64,000 nucleotides of DNA from Candidatus Falkowbacteria bacterium (GCA_016432645.1 CP066698.1:773062-837061); one strand, 5' to 3'. Counted from the first letter of the stretch, positions 7,159 through 56,200 are shown. Translations and numbers: made by a program. The notes: generated by a model not told the origin, from the letters alone.

Positions 7159-7731
7159 TTAAATTCGGCGGCAATCAATAATTTTGAAGTTTTTCCCGTC
7201 TCCCTCAATCTCCACCCAGGCTAAATCTCCAATTTTACCAATCTCGCCTATTTTTAAAATATCTCTAAATAAGACGCGCATCGGACCACCATGCCAAATA
7301 ATTGCGCGGCAGATATCCTGTTCTTTATCGGCCAGATTATTAACAGCGGATACAATTCGATTTCTGAAATCTTGATATGATTCCGCGCCTTCAATAGTGT
7401 TTAAATAATCCCTTAAGGCTTCGGCTAGTTCCGGAGTTTCCATGGCCACTTCTTCTTTGATTCTGCCGGTCACAATTCCGTATTGGTTTCGTTCTTTAAA
7501 ATTTGGCTCAACAATAACGGGACAGCGTCCGGCGGCTAATATTTCCGCGGTCTCGCGTGCGCGCAACAGAGGACTGGAGATTATCAGTCTGATATTTTTT
7601 GTTTTTAATTCCTCTAAAGCTTCTTGAGCTTGCGTCCGGCCTTTGTCTGTTAAATGATCGTCATAATCGCCGCCGTAACGATCTTCCACATCACCAGTTG
7701 TTTTGCCGTGGCGGATAAAGATTAGTTTCAT
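7159..7731 (-). CDS. histidine phosphatase family protein (phosphoglycerate mutase-like)
   Basis: MKLIFIRHGKT catalytic RHG motif. Start placed at the internal ATG (7731) to avoid overlapping the upstream paralogue. Confidence 0.75.
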   Translation of the reverse strand: MKLIFIRHGKTTGDVEDRYGGDYDDHLTDKGRTQAQEALEELKTKNIRLIISSPLLRARETAEILAAGRCPVIVEPNFKERNQYGIVTGRIKEEVAMETPELAEALRDYLNTIEGAESYQDFRNRIVSAVNNLADKEQDICRAIIWHGGPMRVLFRDILKIGEIGKIGDLAWVEIEGDGKNFKIIDCRRI

Positions 7732-7735
7732 AGAA

Positions 7736-8353
7736 TTAGTGATTAAATTTTTCTGTCTTGAAAACGTGGGCATTTTCTGCTGGCGAATCATTAGCTAACA
7801 ATAACAGCTCCGAGTTTCCAAAATGAAACATAGTTAAAACCTCTTTCCAATACAAATTATAGTAACTAGCATAAATCATTTTGCCAATATCACCGCTGGT
7901 TACTAATAAAATATTACCATCTTGGTGATTAGTCTTTATTTTTTCAAGTATTTGATGTGCTCTAACCATTAATTGCGGGAAGGTTTCCGCACCTTCGGGC
8001 GATAAAATATAAGTTATGGTATCGGTTTTTAAAATATTCGGAGCACATAGAGATTCAAGCTCGGCGGTTGGCTTGCCCGTCATAATACCAAAATCACGTT
8101 CTATTAATAATGGCATTGGTTCCGGCTTATCCATTGATAAAGCGTCGGCGACAATTTCGGCCGTCCTTGTCGTTCTAATTAGCGGGGAACTATATATCTT
8201 ATCAAATTTAATATTGGCGGTTTTTATTTTTTGCGCCAGTTCTTGCGCCTGGTTTTCACCGAGCGCCGTCAAAGGCTCGTCCCGATGGCCATTTAAAATT
8301 CCCCTGACATTATCTTGGTCTTGCCCATGGCGGGCGAGATAGATTTTAAGCAT
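7736..8353 (-). CDS. histidine phosphatase family protein (phosphoglycerate mutase-like)
   Basis: MLKIYLARHGQ RHG motif. Tandem paralogue of 7159..7731. Confidence 0.75.
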   Translation of the reverse strand: MLKIYLARHGQDQDNVRGILNGHRDEPLTALGENQAQELAQKIKTANIKFDKIYSSPLIRTTRTAEIVADALSMDKPEPMPLLIERDFGIMTGKPTAELESLCAPNILKTDTITYILSPEGAETFPQLMVRAHQILEKIKTNHQDGNILLVTSGDIGKMIYASYYNLYWKEVLTMFHFGNSELLLLANDSPAENAHVFKTEKFNH

Positions 8354-8356
8354 ATA

Positions 8357-9124
8357 CTATTTGGTATTTGTTTTTAATATTTCCACTACTTCTTGGTGAA
8401 TAACTCCGTTAGTTGCCAGAATCGTTTTGGAATTAATATCCCAGGGTGCACCGTTTTCTTCGGTTACTATTCCGCCCGCTTCTCTTATTAAACAAACTCC
8501 AGCGGCGACATCGTGAGGCACATTGGTAAGATGGTATATTTCCGCATCACCCATGGAAATTTGCGCTAGCTCATAACTACTGGCGTCTATTATTTTAATC
8601 AGCCCGCAGGATTGCGCCAGGTTTAGATTCATTTGTGTTTGATTGCGAAATTTACCGCCCGCATAATACAAGCTCTCGGCTAGCGAGCGCTTAGAAACTT
8701 GAACTTTTTTACTATTAGCCCAGCAGCCCTGGCCCTCTTCGGCGCTCAGTAAAAGATTTATGGTTGGGAAGTATAAGATACCAACGATTGGCTGCCCCTG
8801 GTAAACTAAGCCAATGGAAATGCCAAAAAAAGGAATATTGCGAGAAAAATTATTAGTGCCATCAAGCGGGTCAACATACCAAACATAATCAGCTTCCATA
8901 TTTTGGCCGCCGCTTTCTTCGCCGTAGATACCGAATTCCGGAAATTCTGCTTTGAGAATAGAAATAATTTTGGCTTCACTTTTTATATCAGCGTCCGTCA
9001 CGATAGAAACAGCGCCATGCTCAACTTCTTTCCAGCGGATCTCTGTTAGTTGGCCATAATGCGCCATCAAAATCTTACCGGCTTCTTGGGCGGCCTTAAT
9101 CGCGATGTCTTGAAATTTACTCAT
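8357..9124 (-). CDS. inositol monophosphatase family protein
   Basis: Metal-binding motifs GEE...WYVDPLDGTNNF and downstream AAG region. Confidence 0.85.
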   Translation of the reverse strand: MSKFQDIAIKAAQEAGKILMAHYGQLTEIRWKEVEHGAVSIVTDADIKSEAKIISILKAEFPEFGIYGEESGGQNMEADYVWYVDPLDGTNNFSRNIPFFGISIGLVYQGQPIVGILYFPTINLLLSAEEGQGCWANSKKVQVSKRSLAESLYYAGGKFRNQTQMNLNLAQSCGLIKIIDASSYELAQISMGDAEIYHLTNVPHDVAAGVCLIREAGGIVTEENGAPWDINSKTILATNGVIHQEVVEILKTNTK

Positions 9125-9601: not shown

Positions 9602-10324
9602 TTAATTTTTAATTTTAGTAATTTCTTGCGGGCTTAATTTTCGCCACTCGCCCTCCTTGATGCCCCCTAAGCCGATGCCAGCGAAGTTTGTTCTTTGTAA
9701 ATCAGCCACTTTAAATCCGAGCACGCTAAACATTCTTCTGAGTTGTCTTTTTTTACCTTCATTTAAGGTTATTACAAATAGATTATCTTGTAAATATTCG
9801 GTTTTTTTGGCTCGAGCAACACCATCGCCTTCCCCAATATCCATTCCTTTAATAAGCTCAGTACATATTTTTCGGCCTTCATTATTTTCCAGATTTTCTC
9901 CGCGGCGTGGGAATAGCCTAACGCTATAAGTTTTGTCTTTTTTTAATCTTGGATGGGATAGTTTTTGCGCGAGTTCGCCATCGTTGGTCAGTAAAATTAT
10001 ACCGCGGCTATCTTTATCCAGACGTCCGATAGAAAACATTCTTTCTTTCAAAGAAATTAATTGAAAAATATTTTGCTCCCCCGGAAAAGAACGGTTAGTA
10101 CAGGTGTATCCCATTGGCTTGTTTAATTTGATATAAATTTTTTCGGCTTTTTGGGGTAGTGGCTGACCGCGGAATGTGATTTTATCTTTTTCGGGGTCTA
10201 CTTTATCGCCTAAAATCGCTAGTTTGCCATTGATTTTAATCGAACCCATTCTAATCATTTTTTCTGCTTCGCGCCGAGAAGCTAAACCGCTTTCAGCAAT
10301 TGCTTTTTGTAAAACCATTATCAT
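9602..10324 (-). CDS. pseudouridine synthase, RsuA/RluB family
   Basis: N-terminal S4 domain (GLASRREAEKMI) and catalytic motif GRLDKDSRGIILLTNDG. ATGA overlap with the upstream gene. Confidence 0.85.
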   Translation of the reverse strand: MIMVLQKAIAESGLASRREAEKMIRMGSIKINGKLAILGDKVDPEKDKITFRGQPLPQKAEKIYIKLNKPMGYTCTNRSFPGEQNIFQLISLKERMFSIGRLDKDSRGIILLTNDGELAQKLSHPRLKKDKTYSVRLFPRRGENLENNEGRKICTELIKGMDIGEGDGVARAKKTEYLQDNLFVITLNEGKKRQLRRMFSVLGFKVADLQRTNFAGIGLGGIKEGEWRKLSPQEITKIKN

Positions 10325-11691
10325 ATTTTTTTAATTTTTGCCTCTATTGTAAGCGAACCTAACAGCGCCAAGAAGACAAAAAACATCGCCGACAGGTCAT
10401 TTTTAAAATAAGGAACATCCACTAAGCCATGAACAACAATTACCGCCATCGCTCCGAATAATCCCAAGATTAAATAATTCTTTTTCTGAAAAAACAAGTT
10501 TAAGGAGATAAATAAATATTTTCCGATCAACCAAGTGAAGGCGAGCGCTCCCAAAATTCCGAGCTCGCTCCAAAAATTAAGAAAAATATTATGCGGGTAC
10601 ATATAGATTTCTACCGGCTGCCAATATTTGGCGCGGAGTTCGGCGCTGGCTCGTAACTTGGCATCAAAATTTTCTATCTTGTCGCGGTTAAAAAAGATGC
10701 CTTCTTGATGATACGGAGCAACAGCTGTTTGATAAGCGCTCAAGCCATTGCCGGTTATAACTTTCCAGTCTTTAAGGCTCATCATTGTTTCTGTCCATTG
10801 GCGACGTCTAATTTCGCCTGATAAATCATGCAGTAATATTTTGTCGCTGGCGTAAGTTTTTAAAGTCGGAATTATAAAAATTGCGATGATAACTATCGCT
10901 GCTAAACCAATGGAGGCGATTCGTGTTTTGCGATTAGCAAAAAATAAACACAAGAAAGCGCCAGCCAAAATGCCGATAATCGCGCCCTCGGATTTGGCAA
11001 AGTAAATTGTTAAGAGGGAGATTAAGATTACTAACCCAATTATTAATTTACTAATCGTTTCTTTAGATTCCCAGCCTTTAATACTTAACAGCCAGCCGCT
11101 AAAAATTAAAACTAGCGGAGCGAGATATAAGCCTACGGCATTGGGGTATCCGAAGAAAGACACAACACGACGGGTGCTAGCGTCCGCCCAAAAAGGATTA
11201 AAAATGAAAAACCCAGTTGCTTGTTGAAATAGACCCCAGAGGGAAACCGCCGCCGCTCCTAAAAGTAAAGCTAATAATATTTTCTGTCGCCCTTTATCAC
11301 CCGGTAAAACATTCATCACTAAAATAAATAGCAAAATCGGTTCAAAAAAATAGGCTTTCCAAATACCGAGAGCGCTGGCATTGAATCCGGCAACTGCTAT
11401 GGCTACGAAAGAAATGATAATGATGGCGATTATTTCCCAACCAAAAGGATAGGGCGTCCGTTCTTGGCGGTTTTTAAGCCAAGTTTTTAGATTCGGTGCC
11501 ACATTTTTCAAAAACCAGACCGCAAAACTAATTAAAATCATCGCTTCCAGAAAGGTTAGGGGGACTCCAAGAACATTAAAGCGCAGAAGATAGGCGGGCA
11601 AGAGAGCAGTAATTAAAAAGACGGCTAAATCTAAGCGCAGAATAGCGATTGTGAGAAAAAAAAATAAGCTGGCAATTAATAAGCTGTCCAT
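10321..11691 (-). CDS. O-antigen ligase-like polytopic membrane protein
   Basis: 456 aa, more than 10 TM helices, central Wzy_C-like loop (FAKSEGAIIGILAG). Confidence 0.55.
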   Translation of the reverse strand: MDSLLIASLFFFLTIAILRLDLAVFLITALLPAYLLRFNVLGVPLTFLEAMILISFAVWFLKNVAPNLKTWLKNRQERTPYPFGWEIIAIIIISFVAIAVAGFNASALGIWKAYFFEPILLFILVMNVLPGDKGRQKILLALLLGAAAVSLWGLFQQATGFFIFNPFWADASTRRVVSFFGYPNAVGLYLAPLVLIFSGWLLSIKGWESKETISKLIIGLVILISLLTIYFAKSEGAIIGILAGAFLCLFFANRKTRIASIGLAAIVIIAIFIIPTLKTYASDKILLHDLSGEIRRRQWTETMMSLKDWKVITGNGLSAYQTAVAPYHQEGIFFNRDKIENFDAKLRASAELRAKYWQPVEIYMYPHNIFLNFWSELGILGALAFTWLIGKYLFISLNLFFQKKNYLILGLFGAMAVIVVHGLVDVPYFKNDLSAMFFVFLALLGSLTIEAKIKKI

Positions 11692-21409: not shown

Positions 21410-22468
21410 ATGGAAAGAGATGGTTTTGTTTTTGAAAGAGAAGAGTTGTTTAAGATTGCTGATTGTAAATATGGCGAAAATGCCTATCAATCGCCCGCCG
21501 CTTTGTTTTGTTTGTTTGACTCTATGAGCCGCGATCCTTTTAGTTTGGACAAATTCCGGTTAATTTCCGGTACACCGCTCAGTTACAATAATTATTGTGA
21601 TTTGGATCGCTTGCTGCAGACAATGACGCATATTGCGGCGACTTTTGATTTGAATTGCGGTTCAACCCCCTTCATCGCGGTCGGCGTTAAACACGGCAAC
21701 GCTTGCGGGGCTGGCGTTCATGATATTGATCGCCATGAAACAATTAAGCGGACAGTGACCGGTGACCCCCAAGCCTTGTTTGGTGGATTGGTAATGTTGA
21801 ATTTTGCGGTTGATGTTGAGGAGGCGGAATTGCTGCTGTCTTATAAAACAGAAGTCAGGCGACTGCTTGATGGCGTTATCGCTCCCTGGTTCAGTCCCGA
21901 AGCGATTGAACTCTTAAAGCGTAAAGGCGACAAATGTCGCTTTGTGGCTAATAGTGCCTTGGCCGAATTAGATCGCCATAGTCTGGATAAGGAGCCGATT
22001 GTTCGTTATGTGCGCGGCGGTTTTTTGGCTCAGCCGAATTATACTTACATTTTGGATATCAATGACCCTGATTTAAAAAAATACGGCGCGGTCAAAGAAA
22101 TTCAGGAGTATGATTTTATGCTCGCTAAAGCAATTTGCGATACCAGCAACTCCAACACCATCACTATCGTTAAAGACGGCCAGCTACTTGGTAACGGTGT
22201 CGGTCAACAATCGCGAATTGGCGGAGCGAAGTTAGCCATTAGGACGGCTAAAGATAGCTGTCATAATTATTCTGGCGCCGTAGCCGTAAGCGACAGCTTT
22301 TTCCCTTTCACCGACGGCGTCGAAACTTTAGTGGTCGCCGGTATCACTGCTATTCTCAGTACCAGCGGCTCGGTTAATGACCCAAAAGTTATTGATTATT
22401 GCAATCAATGTGAAGTCCCTCTTTGGCTTATCCCTGACACTAAAGGTCGGGGATTTTACAATCACTAA
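21410..22468 (+). CDS. purH: AICAR transformylase domain protein (PurH C-terminal domain only)
   Basis: Begins at the PurH motif KYGENAYQ and ends with VSDSFFPFTDG...GSVND. The roughly 200-aa MGS-like IMP cyclohydrolase domain of bifunctional PurH is absent. Confidence 0.75.
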   Translation: MERDGFVFEREELFKIADCKYGENAYQSPAALFCLFDSMSRDPFSLDKFRLISGTPLSYNNYCDLDRLLQTMTHIAATFDLNCGSTPFIAVGVKHGNACGAGVHDIDRHETIKRTVTGDPQALFGGLVMLNFAVDVEEAELLLSYKTEVRRLLDGVIAPWFSPEAIELLKRKGDKCRFVANSALAELDRHSLDKEPIVRYVRGGFLAQPNYTYILDINDPDLKKYGAVKEIQEYDFMLAKAICDTSNSNTITIVKDGQLLGNGVGQQSRIGGAKLAIRTAKDSCHNYSGAVAVSDSFFPFTDGVETLVVAGITAILSTSGSVNDPKVIDYCNQCEVPLWLIPDTKGRGFYNH

Positions 22469-28802: not shown

Positions 28803-28836
28803 AAAAAAAATCCCCGTATTTTGCGGGGATTTTTTG
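28803..28836. terminator. bidirectional terminator
   Basis: A8 - ATCCCCG-TATTTTG-CGGGGAT - T5, between convergent uvrA and the 28848 operon. Confidence 0.8.
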
Positions 28837-28847
28837 TCAGTTATTAT

Positions 28848-29345
28848 TTATAGATGTGCCAGTATTTTTAAATCCAGTTTCTTATAATCTGTTTCTAGGA
28901 CGGCAAAGGTAGCCTGGAAAAAGGTGCCGGAAATGTTTCCGGGATTAGCCAGGAAAGTCGGTCCTTGTTTTTCTAGCCAGGGTTTATGACTATGGCCGAA
29001 AAAAATAAAATCTAAAGCTTGCGAACCAATATTTGTTATTTTTTTGATATCTTTGTGTTGATGGCAAAATCCTAAATTTAGTCCACCTATTTTTTTGTTG
29101 CCGGCTAGGCCGTAATATTTAATATTTTTTAAGGTTTTTAAATCTGTTTCTGAAAAAGTTTCGCCGTTACCTTCAACCAAATAAATTTTTCCTGCAAAAT
29201 TATTGGCTAAAAATTTTAAAGTGTCGGCATCGCAGACATCGCCGCAACAAATCATTTCCTTTATTTTATGGTCTTTGCACCAGTCCAGGCATTTGGTCAA
29301 ATTTAAAAGATTGTCATGGATATCGGAAATAATCGCCACTAACAT
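28848..29345 (-). CDS. metallophosphoesterase (YfcE/MJ0936-like)
   Basis: MLVAIISDIHDN, CCGDV, GNGE and FGHSHKP motifs. ATG at 29345, 4 nt after the upstream stop. Confidence 0.75.
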   Translation of the reverse strand: MLVAIISDIHDNLLNLTKCLDWCKDHKIKEMICCGDVCDADTLKFLANNFAGKIYLVEGNGETFSETDLKTLKNIKYYGLAGNKKIGGLNLGFCHQHKDIKKITNIGSQALDFIFFGHSHKPWLEKQGPTFLANPGNISGTFFQATFAVLETDYKKLDLKILAHL

Positions 29346-29349
29346 ATTT

Positions 29350-29925
29350 TTATTTGCCAATTCGCATTTTAATTTCGTAGGCCATTTGCTCCAGTTTTCT
29401 TAAATGCCCGCGCGCTTGGTCGTATTTAGTTCTCAGATATCCGGTCATATCGAAATCAATCAGCTGTGCCATAATATCTTCGGCTGCTTTTTTAATTTTT
29501 GCGACTTCAGTAAACTTGCCTTTGGCGGCTTGATTAGTGGCATAACGCACCAGTTCGCCGATTAAATCGCAGATACCGCCCAAGTATGATTCATAATCAA
29601 GATTCAGGCCAGTGCTAGACTTAATTTCTTTCTTTTTAATTATCAAATAAAAAGTCTTGCCCTCTAAATATTCTTCCGCCGCCGCTTTATAAGCGCCCTC
29701 TTTTTTCAATCTTTCGGCGCCAAAGCGCTTTTCTAAATTAGCCAGCGCCTTTTCCATCTCAGTTATTTTAGCTTCGGCAGTTTTAAAATCCTGTCGCTGC
29801 AAAGAAAAAATAGTTTTTTTAGCTTCAAATAAAATACCGTTAGAGGCACTAATAATTTGTCGGCGCTCGCTTTCGTTGGCTTGGTAGTCTTTCTTCAAAT
29901 CATCTAAGAATTTTTTGTTTATCAT
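29350..29925 (-). CDS. translin family protein
   Basis: YLGGICDLIGELVRY and LRTKYDQARGHLRKLEQMAYEI match the C-terminal translin/TRAX helices. All-helical, 191 aa. Confidence 0.65.
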   Translation of the reverse strand: MINKKFLDDLKKDYQANESERRQIISASNGILFEAKKTIFSLQRQDFKTAEAKITEMEKALANLEKRFGAERLKKEGAYKAAAEEYLEGKTFYLIIKKKEIKSSTGLNLDYESYLGGICDLIGELVRYATNQAAKGKFTEVAKIKKAAEDIMAQLIDFDMTGYLRTKYDQARGHLRKLEQMAYEIKMRIGK

Positions 29926-29929
29926 ATGT

Positions 29930-32900
29930 TTAGATTACTCGGAATACTTCTTCTAAAGTTGTTTCCCCGTTTAATACTTTTAAGATGCCGTCTTGGAGCA
30001 TAGTGACCATACCGTTTTTAATAGCTTCTTGCTCAATTTCGAAGTCGGTAACTCTTTCGTTTTGAATTATAGTTTGGATGCTGGGCGACATGGTTATCGC
30101 TTCGTAAAGGCCGATTCTTCCTTTATATCCAATTTGGCCGCATTTTTCACAGCCGGCACCTTTATAAAAAGTTAATTTTTCCGGAATGGTAACCGCCGGG
30201 TTATTAATGCTGGCTAAAATATTTTTTACTTTTTCTAAATCTTCGGGACTGGCTGAAACCTCCTGCCTGCAATCAGGGCAGATGCGTCGGGCTAAGCGTT
30301 GGCCGATAGTATATTCTATGGAGTTAGCCAGCGCTTGGCGTTCAACGCCGAGGCCGACAAAGCGGGAAATTGCGCCAGCGGCGCTGTTAGCATGGATAGT
30401 GGATAAGACTAAATGGCCGGTCATCGCCGCTTCAATAGATATTTTAGCGGTTTCCGCATCTCTAATTTCACCAATCATCATGATGTTTGGATTTTGGCGC
30501 AGTAAGGATTTCATCGCGGAAACAAAAGTATAGCCGCTTGCTTCGTCAATTTGCGTCTGCATTACGCCTGGCAGCTGGTATTCAATCGGATCTTCGACGG
30601 TAATAATTTTAACATCTGGTTTGTTAAGTTGATTAAGAGCGCTGTAGAGCGTGGTAGTTTTACCGCTACCAGTCGGTCCGGTGGTGATAATAATGCCTTT
30701 GTTTTTTTTCAACGCGACTTCTAAAGAAGATAAAGTGGTGCCGGTAATTCCCAATTTTACCATATCTAAATTAGCGGCCTCGGTTGTTAATAAGCGGATA
30801 ACGATGGTTTCACCATAGCCCCCGGAAATAATTGATAAACGGCAGTCAATTTTATGGTCCGGCAGATAAACACTGAAACGGCCGTCAAAGGTGGCGCGCT
30901 TAATGTTGGTTGGAGTGCCAGCTAAAATCTTTACTTCCGATAACAACGGTAAATAACTGGTTTTTGGTAAGGAAAAAATATCATGTAGGATGCCGTCAAT
31001 GCGAAAACGAATCTTGACTTCATCAGCTGTCGGCTCAATATGAACATCACCCGCTTCTCGCAAGACAGCGAGCGTCATGGTTAACCTAATTAAATCAGAG
31101 GTAGGTACTTCTTTGGCTTTTTCTCTGATATCTAAAATATTTTTACTTAATCCTTGAGCCTCTTCCACTTGCTGCGCGCTTATCTTAACACCGCGGCCGA
31201 TGGTCTGCGAGATAACGATATCGTAGAGCTCATTAACATAATCAAAATTACCAATGACGCGATAAACCTCTTCCAGACTAGTTTCGCCGTCCAAAGCTTT
31301 TAAGACGCCATCCTGAAGCATGGTAATCATGCCATTTTCAATCGCTTGCTGGAGAATCTTGAAAGAAGGCGCTTGCTCTACCGTTAATTGGCGAATTTTG
31401 TCGTCTAGGGTAAAAATTTCAAAAATACCGGAGCGCCCCTTATAGCCGGTAAAGTTGCACTGTTCACAGCCGGCGCCCGCTTGAAAAACATTTGGTAATT
31501 TAGCGGGGATGCTGATTCCGGTTTTTGGCGAGATGACCGCCAATATTTTATTTACCAACTCTCCTTCGTCGGCGCTTAAAGTTTTTTCTTGGCGGCAATG
31601 GATACATAAGCGCCTGACTAGACGCTGTCCGATAACTGCATTGATTGAGGGCGCTAAAAAATAGGGCTTTACTCCAATATCGATTAAGCGCGGGATTACT
31701 CCGGCGGCGTCATTAGTATGTAGAGTTGATAACACAATATGGCCGGTAAGCGAGGCCTGCACAGAAATTTCTGCGGTTTCTAAGTCTCTAATTTCACCAA
31801 CCATGACTACGTTAGGATCTTGGCGCAAGATTGATCTTAAGCCTTCAGAAAAACTGAAGCCGTGTTTGCTATCCACCTGGCTTTGATTGATGCCTGATAA
31901 TTGATATTCAATCGGATCTTCCAGAGTAATTATTTTAGTGCCTGATTGGTTAAGTTGATTAATGACAGCATATAAAGTTGTGGTTTTCCCGCTGCCGGTT
32001 GGCCCGGTTGTCAAAATTAAACCGTTCGGTTTAGCAATTTCTCTTTTTAAAATCGGCAAGACTTCCGGCCGGACGCCTAAATTTTCAATATCCAAAGAGG
32101 TCATGGCGGAATCTAAAAGGCGCATCACCACGCTCTCGCCAAAAGCTGTCGGTAGAAAAGAACAGCGGACGTCAACACGACGCTTCTCTAAATAAATAGT
32201 ATAGCGTCCGTCTTGCGGTTTATTTTCAATATTAATTTTAACGCGCGCCAATATCTTTAAGCGGGAAATAATTTTATGCCATTTTTCACGGCTGATAACG
32301 GCCGCTTCTTGCAAAACGCCATCCAATCTCATTCTGATAACTACGCCGTTATCTTCAGCTTCAATATGAACATCACTGGCGCCGACTTTAATAGCGGTTG
32401 CTAAAATTAAGGTGATGACATCAGTGATATTTACGTCATTTATTTTATCATTGAGATTTTTATAACTAGAAATGTCATTTTTAAATTTTTCTAATTGTTC
32501 GGGGCTGATTTCTACGCCGCTTTCATATTTTTTAACTTTTGGCAGCGAACGGTAAGCCTCTAAGGCCGCCTTTAAGCTATTAGGAGAAATAAGGTATAAT
32601 CTGGTGTCGGCAAAATATTGTTCGCTTAAACGCTTTGTTTCTTCCAGGACTTCAGCGCTTGGATTTAAGCAGCCGACTCTAATATTCTTGCCATCATAAA
32701 AAAAACAAATCGCGTTCAATTCTTTGGCGCGATCTTCCTGCATTAAGACCAAGGCCTCGGGGCTAATCGGAAAGCCATAAAGATTAACGTAATCAAGGCC
32801 GAGCTCCTCGGCGTCTCTTTGAGTTTTATGTTCCAGTTCTTTAAGTTTTATTTCCTCTTGCTTCCTCGCAAAAAGACCGGCGACGCTTTCTTCGTCGCCT

Positions 32901-32941
32901 GTCGGATTTAATAAATTTTCGATTGATTCCACCTTTCCCAT
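29930..32941 (-). CDS. tandem double GspE/PilB-type secretion/pilus assembly ATPase
   Basis: N-terminal T2SSE_N-like domain, then two full ATPase modules. Each has Walker A TGPTGSGKTTT, GEIRD, a His box and CxxC...CxxC. Confidence 0.85.
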   Translation of the reverse strand: MGKVESIENLLNPTGDEESVAGLFARKQEEIKLKELEHKTQRDAEELGLDYVNLYGFPISPEALVLMQEDRAKELNAICFFYDGKNIRVGCLNPSAEVLEETKRLSEQYFADTRLYLISPNSLKAALEAYRSLPKVKKYESGVEISPEQLEKFKNDISSYKNLNDKINDVNITDVITLILATAIKVGASDVHIEAEDNGVVIRMRLDGVLQEAAVISREKWHKIISRLKILARVKINIENKPQDGRYTIYLEKRRVDVRCSFLPTAFGESVVMRLLDSAMTSLDIENLGVRPEVLPILKREIAKPNGLILTTGPTGSGKTTTLYAVINQLNQSGTKIITLEDPIEYQLSGINQSQVDSKHGFSFSEGLRSILRQDPNVVMVGEIRDLETAEISVQASLTGHIVLSTLHTNDAAGVIPRLIDIGVKPYFLAPSINAVIGQRLVRRLCIHCRQEKTLSADEGELVNKILAVISPKTGISIPAKLPNVFQAGAGCEQCNFTGYKGRSGIFEIFTLDDKIRQLTVEQAPSFKILQQAIENGMITMLQDGVLKALDGETSLEEVYRVIGNFDYVNELYDIVISQTIGRGVKISAQQVEEAQGLSKNILDIREKAKEVPTSDLIRLTMTLAVLREAGDVHIEPTADEVKIRFRIDGILHDIFSLPKTSYLPLLSEVKILAGTPTNIKRATFDGRFSVYLPDHKIDCRLSIISGGYGETIVIRLLTTEAANLDMVKLGITGTTLSSLEVALKKNKGIIITTGPTGSGKTTTLYSALNQLNKPDVKIITVEDPIEYQLPGVMQTQIDEASGYTFVSAMKSLLRQNPNIMMIGEIRDAETAKISIEAAMTGHLVLSTIHANSAAGAISRFVGLGVERQALANSIEYTIGQRLARRICPDCRQEVSASPEDLEKVKNILASINNPAVTIPEKLTFYKGAGCEKCGQIGYKGRIGLYEAITMSPSIQTIIQNERVTDFEIEQEAIKNGMVTMLQDGILKVLNGETTLEEVFRVI

Positions 32942-32944
32942 AGT

Positions 32945-33925
32945 TTAAGCTTTTTTCTTGAACATTCTTTCCAATTTAGCTTCGCCTCGGCCCTCTTCTA
33001 ATTCTAAGAATAAATCAGTCCAGGCAGACACTTGGAAAGTTGTTAGAATCGCTCCAGTAAATAAAATTAGAGCGAGGACAATAAACATCAATAAAACTAA
33101 CAGCCAGGCTAAGCCGTAATTGGCGGCAAAAACGAGGTATGGGAAAATAAAAATTGAAATAATCACTAGCAACAGGAAGCCAGCCAAGAAGCTGATAATA
33201 AAGAGAATAATCCCCATTTCAACGCTCATCAGCCAGTTGTTGCCAAATAATTTGATAGCTTTTTTCAAAGAAGCGCAGAACGGCTCCTCATTCAAAACAT
33301 TGTAGGCAATGGCGTATTTAATAATTAAGGACAAGGAAACGGCGATTGGAGTAAAGATTATGAAAGACAATACATAAACCCCAGCTAGGTATACAGAGCC
33401 GTTGACGGCTAAAAATAGTAGAGGAACAGACATTATAAATAAAGCCAGCCCCACTAACAGTTTGATTAAAATATTCAGTCCGAGTACTGGCCAGAAATGG
33501 AGGTGACCTTTAGCTAGATTTTCTCTAATATTTAGAATCGGTGTTTTTTTCTTGGCAACTATTAATTTTTTAGTGCTAACTACTAGCGCTGCCTGTGAGG
33601 ATATGGATAACCAGACAAAAGTCACGATTAAAGTCAGGGTTATAATTAAAACAGTTAAAGTATTGATGATTGTAAAAATATCATAGGAAAATAAATTCCA
33701 AAAACCGGCACAAAAAGAGCCAAAGGCACTTAGGACAACAATTAAGCCGTTAATATGGGAATAGGAATTTTCTAGAGCGCTTGATTGTAGACCATTAGCC
33801 AAGACTTGATATTCAAAAGAGCCGCTGGCGGCCGCGATTGAAGCAAATAACCCAAATAACCAAAGATATTTGTTCTTCCAGGCGATGTTCCAAGATTGTT
33901 TTAAGATTGAGCGATAAGAAAACAT
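32945..33925 (-). CDS. polytopic membrane protein, first gene of the double-ATPase operon
   Basis: 326 aa with about 7-8 TM helices. Its stop lies 3 nt before the ATPase start. No family recognised (not PilC-like). Confidence 0.55.
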   Translation of the reverse strand: MFSYRSILKQSWNIAWKNKYLWLFGLFASIAAASGSFEYQVLANGLQSSALENSYSHINGLIVVLSAFGSFCAGFWNLFSYDIFTIINTLTVLIITLTLIVTFVWLSISSQAALVVSTKKLIVAKKKTPILNIRENLAKGHLHFWPVLGLNILIKLLVGLALFIMSVPLLFLAVNGSVYLAGVYVLSFIIFTPIAVSLSLIIKYAIAYNVLNEEPFCASLKKAIKLFGNNWLMSVEMGIILFIISFLAGFLLLVIISIFIFPYLVFAANYGLAWLLVLLMFIVLALILFTGAILTTFQVSAWTDLFLELEEGRGEAKLERMFKKKA

Positions 33926-34000: not shown

Positions 34001-34030
34001 ATTATAACATAATTCTAAGATTATTACCAA
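34001..34030 (-). promoter_or_regulatory. candidate promoter of the 33925..28848 operon
   Basis: Minus strand reads TTGGTA, 18-nt spacer, TGtTATAAT extended -10. Confidence 0.5.
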
Positions 34031-46537: not shown

Positions 46538-47408
46538 TGATAACTACAATCAGAAAATATCAACTCGGGACATCTTAGACCCACTGGTTTTTTTTGATTT
46601 ATTTGATTTTCCCCTAACTGCTTATGAAATTTGGCATTATTTAGATTGTCGCGGTTCTTTGGCGGCGCTGACATCGTCTTTAGAAATGATAGATTCAAAA
46701 ATTTTAGGCCAAAAAAATGGTTTTTATTTTTTAAGCGGCCGTGAGAATATCGTCGAAACCAGAAAAATAAGATATAATTATTCTTGTCATAAAATAAAAA
46801 TTGCTAAGCGGTTTGCCCGCGCCTTTGCCTTCTCGCCGTTTGTAAAAACTATCGCCATTGCTAATTTTATCGGTGATCATAATTTACGCCAAGAAGGCGA
46901 TATTGATTTCTTTATTATCACTAGTGCCAGGCGGATTTGGTTAAGTCGTTTATTTTGTGCAGGGCTAGCTAAGTTGCTGAACAGCCGCCCGACTGCTAAG
47001 AAAAAACAAGATAAAATTTGTTTGAGTTTTTATATCTCTGAAGAACATCTGGATATTCGTGATTTAGCTTTAGGCGATAACGACCCCTATTTTTATTATT
47101 GGTTGCGTGGGTTGTTGCCAATTTATGATTCTAATAATTTTTATCAGCAGTTTTTAGCCGCCAACAATCTAAGCACTGATAAATTTACCGCGGTTTCTAT
47201 TCAGATATCTTGGCTGGACGCTCTGGAAAAAATAGCTAAAAAGTGGCAGTTAAAAATTATGTCTCCGGGCTTAAAGAAGGCCATGAATAATTCGGACGGA
47301 GTTGTTATTTCGGATAGCGTTCTAAAATTATATCTTAGCGATAGACGGCGTCTATTTGCTGAAAAGTTTAAGTCTAAATATGATGAACTTCTTAAAAAGA
47401 TTAACTGA
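46530..47408 (+). CDS. hypothetical protein (possible nucleotidyltransferase-like GDIDFF motif)
   Basis: 292-aa ORF that overlaps the rmuC stop by 8 nt. No family confidently recognised. Confidence 0.5.
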   Translation: MLSDNYNQKISTRDILDPLVFFDLFDFPLTAYEIWHYLDCRGSLAALTSSLEMIDSKILGQKNGFYFLSGRENIVETRKIRYNYSCHKIKIAKRFARAFAFSPFVKTIAIANFIGDHNLRQEGDIDFFIITSARRIWLSRLFCAGLAKLLNSRPTAKKKQDKICLSFYISEEHLDIRDLALGDNDPYFYYWLRGLLPIYDSNNFYQQFLAANNLSTDKFTAVSIQISWLDALEKIAKKWQLKIMSPGLKKAMNNSDGVVISDSVLKLYLSDRRRLFAEKFKSKYDELLKKIN

Positions 47409-48666
47409 GTTTTTTTTATTAGTTTTTGTTTTTATTCTGCCCTGGCAAACAAAGCTGATTCTTCGGCCGGCACTTAATAATTTTAATGATATCAGTTTGT
47501 ATGCCAGCCATTTGGTTTTATTGCTGGCCCTGATTTGTTTTTTTGTTTATAAGATTTGGACCAGGGATTCCGGCCGTAAAACTCCACCGCTGTGGTATTT
47601 TTTGGGAGTTCTAGAAATTGTAATGGTAGTTTCTTTTTTCTATGCGCCTGATAGGCTCTTAGCCGCTTTCCATTACTTATTATTTTTGGGCGGCCTGGGG
47701 CTGTTTTATTTAGTTAGAGAGGGAATTAATCGCGCCGCTTATGAAGACAGCTGTTTGAATCGGACGAGGATTATCTATGTTTTTTTGGCGAGCGCTTTCT
47801 TGCAAGCTTCTTTGGGAATTTATCAATTTCTCAGTCAAAAATCTTTTGCTTTTAAATATTTAGGCTTGGCCGCTCATGATCCGGAAGTAATGGGAACGGC
47901 GGTCATTGAAACGGCTTCCGGGCGCTGGTTGCGGGCTTATGGCGGCCTCGACCATCCTAATATTTTGGGCGGAGTGCTGGCTATTTCTTTAATTCTGTCA
48001 GCCTATCTATTGGCTCGAAAAAAAATAATTAATTCCAATATTCAAATTTGGGGCTTGATTATGCTGTTTTTCAGTTATTTTTTTGCGTTGATTGCCATGT
48101 TTTTTTCTTTTTCGCGCGCCGCTTGGCTGGCCTATGCAATCGGTATGCTGATTTTAGCCGCGGTTATTTATAAACGGGAAGATCGCTGGGTAGCGAAAAG
48201 ATTTTTAGCGTTAATCTTTTTTTCCGGCGCATTATTGATGATTGCGGCTCTGCCTTATCGCGAGTTAGCGTTAACCCGTTTTGCGGCGACTTCGCGCTTA
48301 GAACAGATTTCTATTTCAGAACGTGAAGATTACCTTTCCCAGTCTGGAGAAATAATAAAAAACCACCCCTGGTTTGGAGTGGGCAATGCTAATTATGTAA
48401 AATATCTGGAAAAAAATTCAGCTATCAGTAATTTTAATTATTATCAACCGGTTCATAATGCTTTTCTCTTGGTTTTTGCTGAAAATGGCGTCTTTGCTTT
48501 TTTGGCCGTGATTTTATTTTTAATTTTCTTGGCGTTTAGCCCGCGCCGGCAAAATTTTGCCTTCTCAATTATTGCCGCTCTGGTGATTATGATGATGTTT
48601 GATCACTGGCTCCTCTCTCTGCCTTTTGGAATTTTATTCTTCTTCTTGATTCTCGGCTTGATTTGA
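47380..48666 (+). CDS. O-antigen ligase family membrane protein
   Basis: More than 10 TM helices and Wzy_C-type loop FSFSRAAWLAYAIG. ATG at 47380 preferred over TTG at 47356. Confidence 0.65.
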   Translation: MMNFLKRLTEFFLLVFVFILPWQTKLILRPALNNFNDISLYASHLVLLLALICFFVYKIWTRDSGRKTPPLWYFLGVLEIVMVVSFFYAPDRLLAAFHYLLFLGGLGLFYLVREGINRAAYEDSCLNRTRIIYVFLASAFLQASLGIYQFLSQKSFAFKYLGLAAHDPEVMGTAVIETASGRWLRAYGGLDHPNILGGVLAISLILSAYLLARKKIINSNIQIWGLIMLFFSYFFALIAMFFSFSRAAWLAYAIGMLILAAVIYKREDRWVAKRFLALIFFSGALLMIAALPYRELALTRFAATSRLEQISISEREDYLSQSGEIIKNHPWFGVGNANYVKYLEKNSAISNFNYYQPVHNAFLLVFAENGVFAFLAVILFLIFLAFSPRRQNFAFSIIAALVIMMMFDHWLLSLPFGILFFFLILGLI

Positions 48667-55180: not shown

Positions 55181-56200
55181 ATGGCTATAGAAGAACGCTT
55201 AATTAGTCCGATTGGAAAGAAGGGGGAGGACGCCTTAGATTTGTCTTTGCGTCCGAAATTTTTAGTGGAGTATATCGGTCAGGAAAAAGTAAAACAAAAT
55301 TTAGAGATTACTATTGCCGCCGCCAAAAAACGAACTGAGCCGATTGAGCATATTCTGCTTTATGGCGCCCCCGGTTTAGGCAAGACGACTTTAGCACATG
55401 TAATTGCTAATGAGACTGGTGCCAATATTCGCGTTACCTCTGGGCCGGTGATTGAAAAAACCGGTGACTTGGCCGCGATTTTAACTAATTTGGAAGAAGG
55501 CGATATTTTGTTTATTGATGAAATTCATCGTTTATCAAAAACCGTGGAGGAGATTTTATATCCGGCCATGGAAGATTATGCCTTAGATATTGTGATGGGT
55601 AAAGGTCCAAGCGCTCGGACTTTAAGATTGGATTTACCCAAGTTTACAATTATCGGGGCGACGACTTTAGCTAGTTTATTATCGGCGCCTTTGCGGGATC
55701 GTTTTGGAATTACGCATCATTTAAACTTTTATGAGTCTGGCGATATTGAACAAATTATTTCCCGCAGTGCCAGAATTCTTAACATTAAAATTGATGATGA
55801 GGCTAAAAAAGAAATTGCTAATCGCAGCCGTCGGACACCGCGTATCGCTAACCGTTTATTAAAGCGAGTACGTGATTATTGCGAAGTTAAAGGCGATGGG
55901 TATATTACCTTAGAGCACTGTTTGGAGGCGATGAAAATGCTGGAAGTTGATAGTCTTGGTTTAGATTTTGTTGACCGCCGCATTTTAGAAACAATTATTC
56001 ATAAATTTAAAGGCGGACCGGTCGGGCTTAATACTTTGGCGGCCGCAACCGGTGAGGAGGCGGATACGATTGAAAATATGTATGAACCATATCTAATGCA
56101 ACTTGGATTTTTAGACCGTTCCCCGCGCGGACGAATTGTAACTGCTCTTGGTTATGAACATTTAGGATTGAAGCCGGCTGGACAGGATAAATTGGTATGA
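55181..56200 (+). CDS. ruvB: Holliday junction branch migration helicase RuvB
   Basis: [20 protein letters not shown]-type Walker A (GAPGLGKTT), and DEIHRL. Confidence 0.95.

Follow-up and report, generated by a model that had tools for sequence, protein, structure and literature searches.

Type IV pili, type II secretion and DNA uptake all depend on ATPases of the PilB/GspE type for their power. How ATP turnover is coordinated among the six identical subunits of the ATPase rings is debated, with a C2 rotary cycle on one side and C3 states on the other (PMC5424180, PMC6858323). The locus described here raises the question of what kind of motor results when a single chain carries two such ATPase modules in tandem. 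It lies in a 64,000-nucleotide stretch of DNA from a Candidatus Falkowbacteria bacterium (GCA_016432645.1, CP066698.1:773062-837061; positions counted from its first letter), referred to below as the window, in which an open reading frame (ORF) at 29930..32941 on the minus strand encodes a 1003-residue protein with one N1D followed by two N2D+CTD modules (M1 and M2). An earlier reading of the window, made from its sequence alone (the sequence-only reading), had described this ORF as an old fusion or duplication and had proposed that its product forms a trimer-of-dimers ring.

The two-module gene and its conservation

The ORF (1003 codons plus stop) starts with ATG, contains no N and no internal stop, and encodes, in order, the N1D, a linker, M1, a second linker and M2. 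Pfam PF00437 (T2SSE) matches it in two separate stretches (757 bits summed), each spanning profile positions ~6-370 of 370. A BLASTP comparison of residues 1-570 with residues 571-1003 pairs 142-563 with 584-1003 at 196/423 identical positions (46%; E 1e-134), in line with the half identity that had been estimated by eye, and the Walker A boxes of M1 and M2 are spaced by exactly 442 residues. ORF, Pfam and BLASTP agree with the sequence-only reading that one unbroken frame carries a single N1D and then two full modules; its worry that a profile search might detect one ATPase domain only did not materialise, as Pfam gives two. The two-module architecture of ORF 29930-32941 is a real observation, which we hold to be practically certain. 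Within the ORF, the strongest DNA repeat has copies 1326 nt (442 codons) apart that share 71% identity across 135 nt; nothing in it would therefore be able to collapse or chimerise in assembly, and the description of the two halves as old paralogues, as opposed to a collapsed repeat, stands.

The features of the protein are given here with their minus-strand coordinates. The N1D (residues 47-132; 32546..32803) is a MshEN/GSPII-like domain, present once per chain and matched weakly by Pfam PF05157 (26.9 bits, cutoff 23.1); the match spans the generic GSPII fold, and AlphaFold gives the region an alpha/beta fold with a predicted local distance difference test (pLDDT) score of 81-89. Tandem 24-residue c-di-GMP-binding MshEN motifs, of the form RLGxx(L/V/I)(L/V/I)xxG(L/V/I)(L/V/I)xxxxLxxxLxxQ, were not seen in residues 1-140 by eye, no dedicated motif scan having been run. 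The N1D-N2D linker (residues 133-169; 32435..32545) contains at residues 142-169 the start of the duplicated unit as delimited by BLASTP. M1 (N2D ~170-280, CTD ~290-563; 31253..32434; T2SSE stretch 170-561) has its Walker A box, GPTGSGKT, at residues 313-320 (31982..32005), with the Gly and Lys invariant in a 55-sequence family alignment, and its Walker B box with the catalytic Glu, GEIRD, at residues 382-386 (31784..31798), where the pore-loop acidic residues D386 and E388 are also found. Its His box, TGHIVLSTLHTN, was assigned by motif census and family alignment to residues 399-410 (31712..31747), and its tetracysteine of the Zn-binding type is formed by C446, C449, C492 and C495 (31457..31606), all four of which are invariant in the family.

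The inter-module linker (residues 564-611; 31109..31252), which lies in the range of 31.15-31.30 kb where the junction had been placed, has conserved residues G564, Y568 and Y573, and its sequence holds no Met or other obvious internal start. M2 (N2D ~612-722, CTD ~732-1003; 29933..31108) forms the second T2SSE stretch. Its Walker A box, GPTGSGKT, is at residues 755-762 (30656..30679), its Walker B box with the catalytic Glu, GEIRD, at residues 824-828 (30458..30472) with the pore-loop acidic residues D828 and E830, and its His box, TGHLVLSTIHAN, at residues 841-852 (30386..30421), as assigned by motif census and by alignment to the family and to PDB chains. In the M2 tetracysteine (C888, C891, C931 and C934; 30140..30280), C888 and C934 are invariant and C891 and C931 are at least 90% conserved. 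An LEEV motif is located at residue 556 in M1 and at residue 996 in M2. All motifs quoted in the sequence-only reading are present in both halves, and their nucleotide positions were right within a few bases.

The T2SSE superfamily motifs (Walker A, Asp box, atypical Walker B with the catalytic Glu, and His box) are found in both modules family-wide. Among the marks of the GspE/PilB extension type, as opposed to the PilT retraction type, CxxC...CxxC in an extended CTD is present in both modules and the N1D once and weakly. AlphaFold2 was run on single chains with the 55-sequence family alignment, and the full-chain model has a mean pLDDT of 82.6. In a Foldseek search with the AlphaFold model, the match was 5tsh_E (Geobacter metallireducens PilB), at a target-normalised TM-score of 0.92 and 43% identity, over one module only.

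The window protein is 100% identical to P0001, recorded as 'type II/IV secretion system protein [Candidatus Falkowbacteria bacterium]' on a 977,025-bp contig. Clusters at 90% identity were drawn from four independent sources (NCBI, JGI, ENA and Logan); the best 120, which were those listed, are all 1003-1007 residues long (one 1027) and 72-96% identical to the window protein. Synteny around the tandem gene is conserved at 92% and at 72% protein identity. Against a 92%-identical orthologue, nonsynonymous divergence (pN) is 0.049 in M1, 0.052 in M2 and 0.081 in the linker, and synonymous divergence (pS) is ~0.70 and saturated (0.68 in the linker); low pN with saturated pS puts dN/dS at ~0.03-0.05 at most throughout. 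Both modules are under equally strong purifying selection, and the ORF is a genuine, strongly conserved gene of a Falkowbacteria-type bacterium (Parcubacteria group, Patescibacteria).

An exhaustive profile-free scan of 1.84 billion 50%-identity protein representatives returned 15 tandem representatives of 978-1047 residues, down to 38% identity, with single-module PilBs ranking next. Since a tandem protein scores roughly double what a single one does, this list of tandem PilB-like proteins should be near complete. About a dozen of these 50%-identity clusters extend the architecture across Parcubacteria-group lineages, and one further protein, P0135, is discussed below; named carriers are Falkowbacteria, 'Parcubacteria group bacterium GW2011_GWA2_47_8' (KKU82539.1), Paceibacterota and Moraniibacteriota. 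Judged from these sequences, the tandem form is widespread in Parcubacteria-group bacteria. Three single-module proteins nested in the M1 and M2 clades (P0180, P0264 and P0266) were treated as fragments of tandem genes, their contigs being shorter than 2.7 kb. Tandem sequences entered public databases under generic names, no later than the GW2011 genomes. A PilB that is tandem, duplicated or heteromeric is not mentioned in searchable open-access full texts or in a 2024 review of PilB (PMC11656802). Within that searchable literature, this real and conserved architecture has no description.

Competence of the modules and probable assembly into a ring

The functional residues of G. metallireducens PilB (PilB_Gm) were taken from McCallum et al. 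2017 (PMC5424180), and M2 was mapped onto them via a HMMER alignment to 5tsg_B, in which the chain index equals native numbering plus 20. The nucleotide-sensing arginines R257, R271 and R286 correspond to R688, R701 and R716 in M2 and to R246, R259 and R274 in M1; the Walker A threonine T327 to T757 and T315; the Mg-coordinating Asp-box Glu E357 to E787 and E345; and the Walker B Glu E395 to E825 and E383. The pore-loop acidic residues D398 and E400 are D828 and E830 in M2 and D386 and E388 in M1, the His-box residues T411, H413 and H420 are T841, H843 and H850 in M2 and T399, H401 and H408 in M1, and the named interface residue R455 is R885 in M2 and R443 in M1. Across the 55 sequences of the family alignment, each mapped residue is either invariant or conserved at 90% or more. 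By these alignments both modules keep every known residue for nucleotide binding and sensing, hydrolysis, contact with the neighbouring subunit and the pore, and both copies are complete and apparently active. The motif census and the alignment to Geobacter PilB thus bear out the earlier claim that the catalytic motifs are kept in both halves.

The PilB-family ring consists of six packing units, in each of which an N2D is combined with the CTD of the following chain. Nucleotide occupies the sites between the units, the N2Ds all share one face of the ring, and the proposed role of the pore loops is to rotate and raise PilC (PMC5424180). All PilB structures are C2 (CCOCCO), and the rings of PilT4, FlaI, DotB and archaeal GspE2 are C3 (OCOCOC) (PMC5424180, PMC6858323). 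For the window protein, a trimer-of-dimers ring does not simply follow from a covalent dimer, as the sequence-only reading had implied, but it is the most plausible assembly on analogy with these structures. Three tandem chains would supply six N2Ds and six CTDs and close one ring in which M1 and M2 alternate, three packing units being formed within chains and three between chains. The M1:M2 stoichiometry would be 1:1 and the order of the modules fixed, the symmetry would be C3 at most, and two non-equivalent types of site would result, a conservative one in M1 and a faster-evolving one in M2. Only three N1D arms would be available for PilM/GspL-type partners (cf. 4PHT, GspE-GspL). Since each opposite pair would consist of one M1 and one M2, a PilB-like two-at-a-time rotary cycle would be possible, although pseudo-symmetric only, and the intramolecular nature of half of the interfaces would promote ring assembly. 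Indirect evidence for a single ring is that both modules keep pore and interface residues and are equally constrained, and that the 48-residue linker is long and partly flexible.

A different use of the same chain would be a stacked double ring, with six M1 in one homomeric ring and six M2 beneath it, so that six chains would carry twelve ATP sites. KaiC, ClpB, p97/NSF and other tandem P-loop ring ATPases offer a precedent for this arrangement. Each module of the window protein has its own N2D and CTD, making homotypic packing units feasible, the 48-residue linker would permit stacking, and AlphaFold gave no confident packing of M1 against M2, the predicted TM-score (pTM) being 0.48 for the full length and 0.65 for CTD1-linker-N2D2. 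The work of a PilB-type ATPase is, however, done by N2D-face pore loops on a platform protein (PMC5424180). A rear ring would be out of reach of that platform, yet M2 keeps D828 and E830 and is under purifying selection like that on M1. Stacking is regarded as possible but rather unlikely, and a single alternating ring would be mechanistically more natural for a PilB-type motor.

It is also conceivable that one module is a degenerate, regulatory or structural pseudo-ATPase, as would be the case if M2 separated the three active M1 motors as a spacer or stator. Mean identity between family members is 0.489 for M1-M1 and 0.425 for M2-M2 comparisons, with M1 the more conserved in 65/66 pairs, and among the columns that are at least 90% conserved in single-module PilBs (n=84), M1 keeps 95.6% and M2 88.8%. 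The departures of M2 are lineage-specific and lie mostly in the N2D (R645, Q685/D686 and P706), with D817N in addition; the Walker A lysine is missing from one module of the unrelated tandem P0135. On these comparisons M2 evolves faster than M1. Set against a pseudo-ATPase, the Walker A Lys, Asp box, catalytic Glu, His box, the three N2D arginines and the pore residues of M2 are kept in the window protein and in 12/12 main-family representatives, whose M2 P-loop variants (GPTGAGKT, GPTSAGKT and GSTGAGKT) retain G-x4-GK[ST] in every case, and short-range pN is equal in both modules. We consider loss of activity in one module improbable, and two working modules in an alternating ring are preferred.

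Origin of the tandem and its chromosomal setting

The duplicated unit can be delimited from the AlphaFold model. The elements that precede the N2D of M1 (strand 142-144, helices 147-156 and 162-167) recur before the N2D of M2 at 584-586, 589-599 and 602-611, and the inter-module linker consists of a helix (568-580) and a low-confidence flexible hinge (577-583), followed by a copy of the N1D-N2D linker. The unit would accordingly extend from the N1D-N2D linker to the C-terminus, with no second N1D. Because M2 is preceded by a copy of that linker but not by a second N1D, and because single-module and tandem forms occupy the same locus, we infer an internal duplication of this unit as the source of the tandem.

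The shared locus is adjacent to ruvB. In distant tandem members the gene order is PolA-TsaE-(DHH)-[tandem ATPase]-RuvB, with RuvC and YebC nearby (L082, L083, L084, L086, L088 and L002), and in four of the contexts (L002, L083, L086 and L088) the tandem gene immediately precedes ruvB, both being on one strand. A single-module gene fills this slot in P0178/L090 (PolA-TsaE-[553 aa]-RuvB) and in P0134/L091 ([565 aa]-RuvB-RuvC). Further loci were obtained by a contig scan with the family alignment, which used universal PilB motifs and returned mostly single-module PilBs of many phyla; these loci served for ruvB synteny and not as a survey of the tandem form, and counts refer to the matches listed. 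Among them, at least 12 further Patescibacteria loci have a single-module gene in the PolA-TsaE/ruvB slot, the carriers including Giovannonibacteria, Staskawiczbacteria, Nealsonbacteria, Paceibacterota, Minisyncoccia and metagenome-assembled genomes labelled Saccharibacteria. In the single-module loci (L006, L010, L013, L014, L016-L018, L020, L023, L026, L028, L031, L090 and L091), ruvB is found 200-650 nt downstream on the same strand. The single-module ruvB-linked genes encode ~440-710 residues, compared with ~1000 for the tandem genes, and some of the single-module forms (436-450 residues) are devoid of an N1D.

A neighbour-joining tree of 117 N2D+CTD cores (200 bootstraps) groups 14 M1, 14 M2, 15/15 ruvB-linked single-module proteins and five others in one clade (95/200). 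PilT-linked PilBs of Patescibacteria (L024 from Doudnabacteria, and L030) fall outside this clade, within a larger one (179/200). The ruvB-linked single-module PilB-like ATPases share both slot and clade with the tandem family of the window protein and are its unduplicated orthologues. Synteny and tree position together place the window gene as a tandem member of a Patescibacteria-wide orphan PilB-like group located outside pilus clusters. In the window genome itself, unlike in these relatives, ruvB is at 55181-56200 on the plus strand, 22 kb off and on the opposite strand; as tandem relatives (L002, L083, L086 and L088) have the linkage, it was lost in the Falkowbacteria-type lineage. The pairing of a PilB-like ATPase gene with ruvB is deeply conserved in Patescibacteria, and no description of it was found in the literature searched.

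The number of duplications was addressed with quartets, counted as parsimony-informative sites, in two subclades: A (the window protein and P0121-P0123) and B (P0124-P0126, P0128-P0130, P0132 and P0133). In each subclade the quartets favour one duplication, M1 grouping with M1 and M2 with M2 (129:47:26 for A, 396:173:138 for B). For comparisons across the two subclades they are ambiguous, with 311 sites for one duplication and 353 for separate duplications or conversion, and bootstraps of 22/200 and 29/200 give little support to a single clade uniting every main-family M2. The modules within P0127, and likewise those within P0131, are each other's nearest relatives (55% and 74% identity), and the genes are in the main-family syntenic slot. 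Nucleotide identity between the modules of P0131 (L088:3226-6213) is a mosaic, ranging from 0.58 to 0.99 per 30 codons, a pattern expected from recent gene conversion within the gene or, as the locus is a single 7-kb metagenomic contig, from a chimeric assembly. In at least one lineage besides the window's, the modules would have undergone later gene conversion. Independent duplications in P0127 and P0131 were considered as an explanation of their sister modules, and this is weakened by the shared syntenic slot and by the mosaic identity of P0131. From the 46% identity in the window's lineage it is concluded that at least one internal duplication is old; beyond it, there was either more than one duplication or repeated homogenisation.

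The sequence-only reading had left the choice between fusion and duplication open, and of these the second is retained, as internal duplication of a resident single-module gene at the ruvB-linked locus. An end-to-end fusion of two neighbouring, already divergent paralogous PilB genes would be in keeping with the two or three PilB-like genes found in a row in several phyla (e.g. Planctomycetota L047, L008 and L036) and with the window M1 sharing more identity with some single-module proteins (52% with P0140) than with M2 of the same chain (46%), the latter a relation that the faster evolution of M2 explains. A second N1D, however, has left no trace, M2 opens with the N1D-N2D linker copy, many Patescibacteria have just one gene, with one module, at the corresponding chromosomal slot, and no split two-gene intermediate was seen in the ruvB-linked slot. 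Fusion is accordingly judged very improbable. An artefact, whether two adjacent genes joined by sequencing, assembly or frameshift error or a mis-assembled repeat, can be set aside almost entirely, because more than 120 clusters from independent assemblies share length and architecture, linker residues G564, Y568 and Y573 are conserved, the linker is under purifying selection (pN 0.081 against pS 0.68), the internal DNA repeat is at most 71% identical and synteny is conserved; the assembly error splitting the gene in two, of which the sequence-only reading had warned, is likewise not indicated.

As a separate observation, the Planctomycetota loci L047:609-5979, L008:4789-9564 and L036:5791-10267 each contain three consecutive secretion-ATPase genes. 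In L047 these are three full-length PilB-type genes in a row, that is, a multi-paralogue set of motors encoded as separate genes and not as fusions.

The surroundings of the ORF are those of a housekeeping chromosome, the 64-kb window encoding UvrA, ArgRS, GlyRS, GyrA, RuvB, TsaD, EF-P and seven tRNAs. Immediately upstream on the minus strand is a gene for a 326-residue membrane protein (32945..33925) with ~7 hydrophobic segments and no Pfam family, whose stop is 3 nt before the ATPase start. Downstream, likewise on the minus strand, are a translin-family gene (29350..29925; 191 residues; PF01997, 73.8 bits), which starts 4 nt past the ATPase stop, and a metallophosphoesterase gene (28848..29360; 170 residues; PF12850, 83.9 bits), whose ORF shares 11 nt with that of translin, a family found mainly in eukaryotes and archaea. 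The four genes form a putative tight minus-strand operon. A sigma-70-like promoter match (34001..34030, minus strand; 10/12, extended -10 TG) upstream of the four-gene unit and an intrinsic-terminator-like hairpin (28805..28835, minus strand; 12-bp stem and T run) just past the metallophosphoesterase gene are consensus matches only, and promoter-like sites in the region are as numerous as expected by chance. The unit is conserved only in the close relatives L001 and L092, which have the translin and metallophosphoesterase genes as well as the membrane protein gene beside the ATPase (50% identity in L001); the last is absent from the other family contexts. The membrane protein was considered as a dedicated platform partner and set aside, being confined to L001 and L092 and hence not family-wide.

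Several other genes of the window were noted. Wzy_C (O-antigen-ligase-like) membrane proteins are encoded at 10321-11691 (minus strand) and 47356-48666 (plus strand), and two more are near the tandem ATPase at L085:13833-16638, beside an M16 peptidase and a flippase. The Wzy_C Pfam family includes pilin O-glycosylases, and the proteins of the window and of L085 could be pilin-modifying enzymes. Two His_Phos_1 paralogues are adjacent at 7159-7791 and 7736-8353 (both minus strand; the ORFs as listed overlap by 56 nt) and are followed by an inositol-monophosphatase-family gene at 8357-9124. A 352-residue protein at 21410-22468 (plus strand) matches only positions 75-310 of the AICARFT/IMPCHase (PurH) profile and appears to be the product of a stand-alone partial PurH-like gene, in a bacterial group expected to be without purine synthesis.

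Function and comparison with known systems

The window protein likely powers a type IV filament, either a pilus or a competence-type pseudopilus, whose other parts would be encoded elsewhere. Type IV pilus components are reported to be near-universal in bacteria of the candidate phyla radiation and often clustered (PMC6744442), and Parcubacteria-group bacteria depend on pili and DNA uptake for episymbiotic life (PMC6744442, PMC12206443). Cultivated Saccharibacteria have two pilus systems, each with its own clustered pilB, and the same report makes no mention of ruvB or of a ruvB-linked PilB-like group (PMC12206443). The recurrent neighbours of the tandem gene (ruvB, ruvC, PolA and DHH phosphoesterase, and in the window translin and metallophosphoesterase) act on nucleic acids or phosphate esters. 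They are compatible with a role in DNA uptake, to which we attach low weight, and may reflect nothing other than conserved gene order.

Overall, the best explanation of the locus is a real two-motor gene that arose by internal duplication and whose product forms a three-chain alternating ring as the motor of a type IV filament, and we hold this combination to be probably correct. Several observations count against it. No pilin, PilC, PilM/N/O, PilD or PilT gene and no prepilin motif was found in the 64-kb window, nor were pilC, pilM/N/O, pilD or pilin genes found in contexts L001, L082-L086, L088 and L090-L092; homology is the one link to a filament, and neither module by itself reaches the NCBIfam equivalog cutoff for PilB, GspE or ComGA. 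The geometry between the modules is not fixed by the AlphaFold models, the tandem ATPases KaiC, ClpB and p97/NSF form stacked double rings and not single pseudo-hexamers, and neither the quartets between subclades A and B nor the bootstrap for the M2 clade singles out one duplication.

A more far-reaching proposal, which we put forward as a doubtful one, is that the chain is an obligate alternating-site motor in which M1 and M2 have divided roles, that its architecture was repeatedly made or re-homogenised at the ruvB/PolA locus, and that it serves a machine distinct from the canonical pilus clusters, such as a DNA-uptake filament coupled to recombination. If so, the PilT/VirB11-like family would have its first natural example of a ring that is heteromeric by design, and C2 and C3 mechanisms could be told apart with a tool that is already at hand. 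The ruvB-linked group also means that Patescibacteria carry a conserved, unstudied PilB-like gene outside their pilus clusters.

The score of the protein against named systems is to be read with its two modules in mind. NCBIfam cutoffs are 630.25 bits for GspE (TIGR02533), 675.65 for PilB (TIGR02538), 300 for ComGA (NF041000) and 319 for the PilT family (TIGR01420). The whole protein scores 906 (GspE, the best model), 867 (PilB) and 474 (ComGA), all above cutoff, because two sub-threshold modules are summed. Residues 1-564 (N1D and M1) and M2 (565-1003), scored separately, reach 488.5 and 428.1 bits for GspE, 474.5 and 403.1 for PilB, 246.5 and 231.9 for ComGA, and 187 and 155 for the PilT family, all below cutoff. 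By profile, the window protein is a GspE/PilB-type member of the PilT/VirB11-like superfamily and the equivalog of no named system, and tandem proteins are liable to be misnamed by cutoff-based automatic annotation.

Each module is most like PilB (G. metallireducens 5TSG/5TSH/6OLJ; Thermus PilF core 5IT5/5OIU), with the same N2D+CTD fold, the same four ATPase motifs, tetracysteine, arginines, His-box and pore residues, and, in the protein as a whole, an N-terminal domain of the N1D/MshEN type; the best PDB matches of M2 are Geobacter PilB chains (~310 bits). PilB differs in having one module per chain, the window protein having two modules to one N1D, and in its C2 structures (PMC6858323), a symmetry of which a three-chain tandem ring would be incapable in the true sense. 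The window gene is also, unlike pilB, outside a pil cluster, and most of its relatives are beside ruvB. GspE/EpsE (Vibrio, 1P9R, 4KSR/4KSS and 4PHT) belongs to the same superfamily and has the same motifs, and the top PDB sequence match of the full-length protein is a GspE chain (4pht_A, 346 bits). Unlike GspE, the tandem ATPase has no type II secretion system genes nearby, and the outer-membrane secretin is reported missing from Patescibacteria (PMC6744442). Hexameric crystals of GspE required an artificial Hcp1 fusion (4KSR/4KSS), an engineered counterpart of covalent help in ring formation. In sequence and Foldseek searches no solved PDB chain has two modules, and every solved relative covers one.

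The only other tandem T2SSE architecture in the exhaustive scan is P0135 (L087:8001-11144; 1047 residues), from a bacterium outside Patescibacteria, which has a T2SSF (PilC/GspF platform) domain in the place of the N1D, followed by two T2SSE modules. Its M1, unlike that of the window protein, has lost the Walker A lysine (GSGTT), and its gene is in the context of an ECF sigma/anti-sigma pair, a sulfatase and BatA/MoxR. The two P0135 modules are each other's nearest relatives (178/200; quartets 235 against 66), from which its tandem is taken to have arisen independently.

Beyond the superfamily, KaiC, ClpB/Hsp104 and p97/NSF resemble the window protein in carrying two homologous P-loop modules per chain, in internal duplication and in asymmetric divergence, and differ from it in fold and family and in having their modules stacked in two rings. 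A chain with two distinguishable modules would fix both stoichiometry and order within a ring, so that mutation of one type of site would disable every second position. In homohexamers the same control requires engineered covalent rings, and covalently linked ClpX rings of this kind have been engineered.

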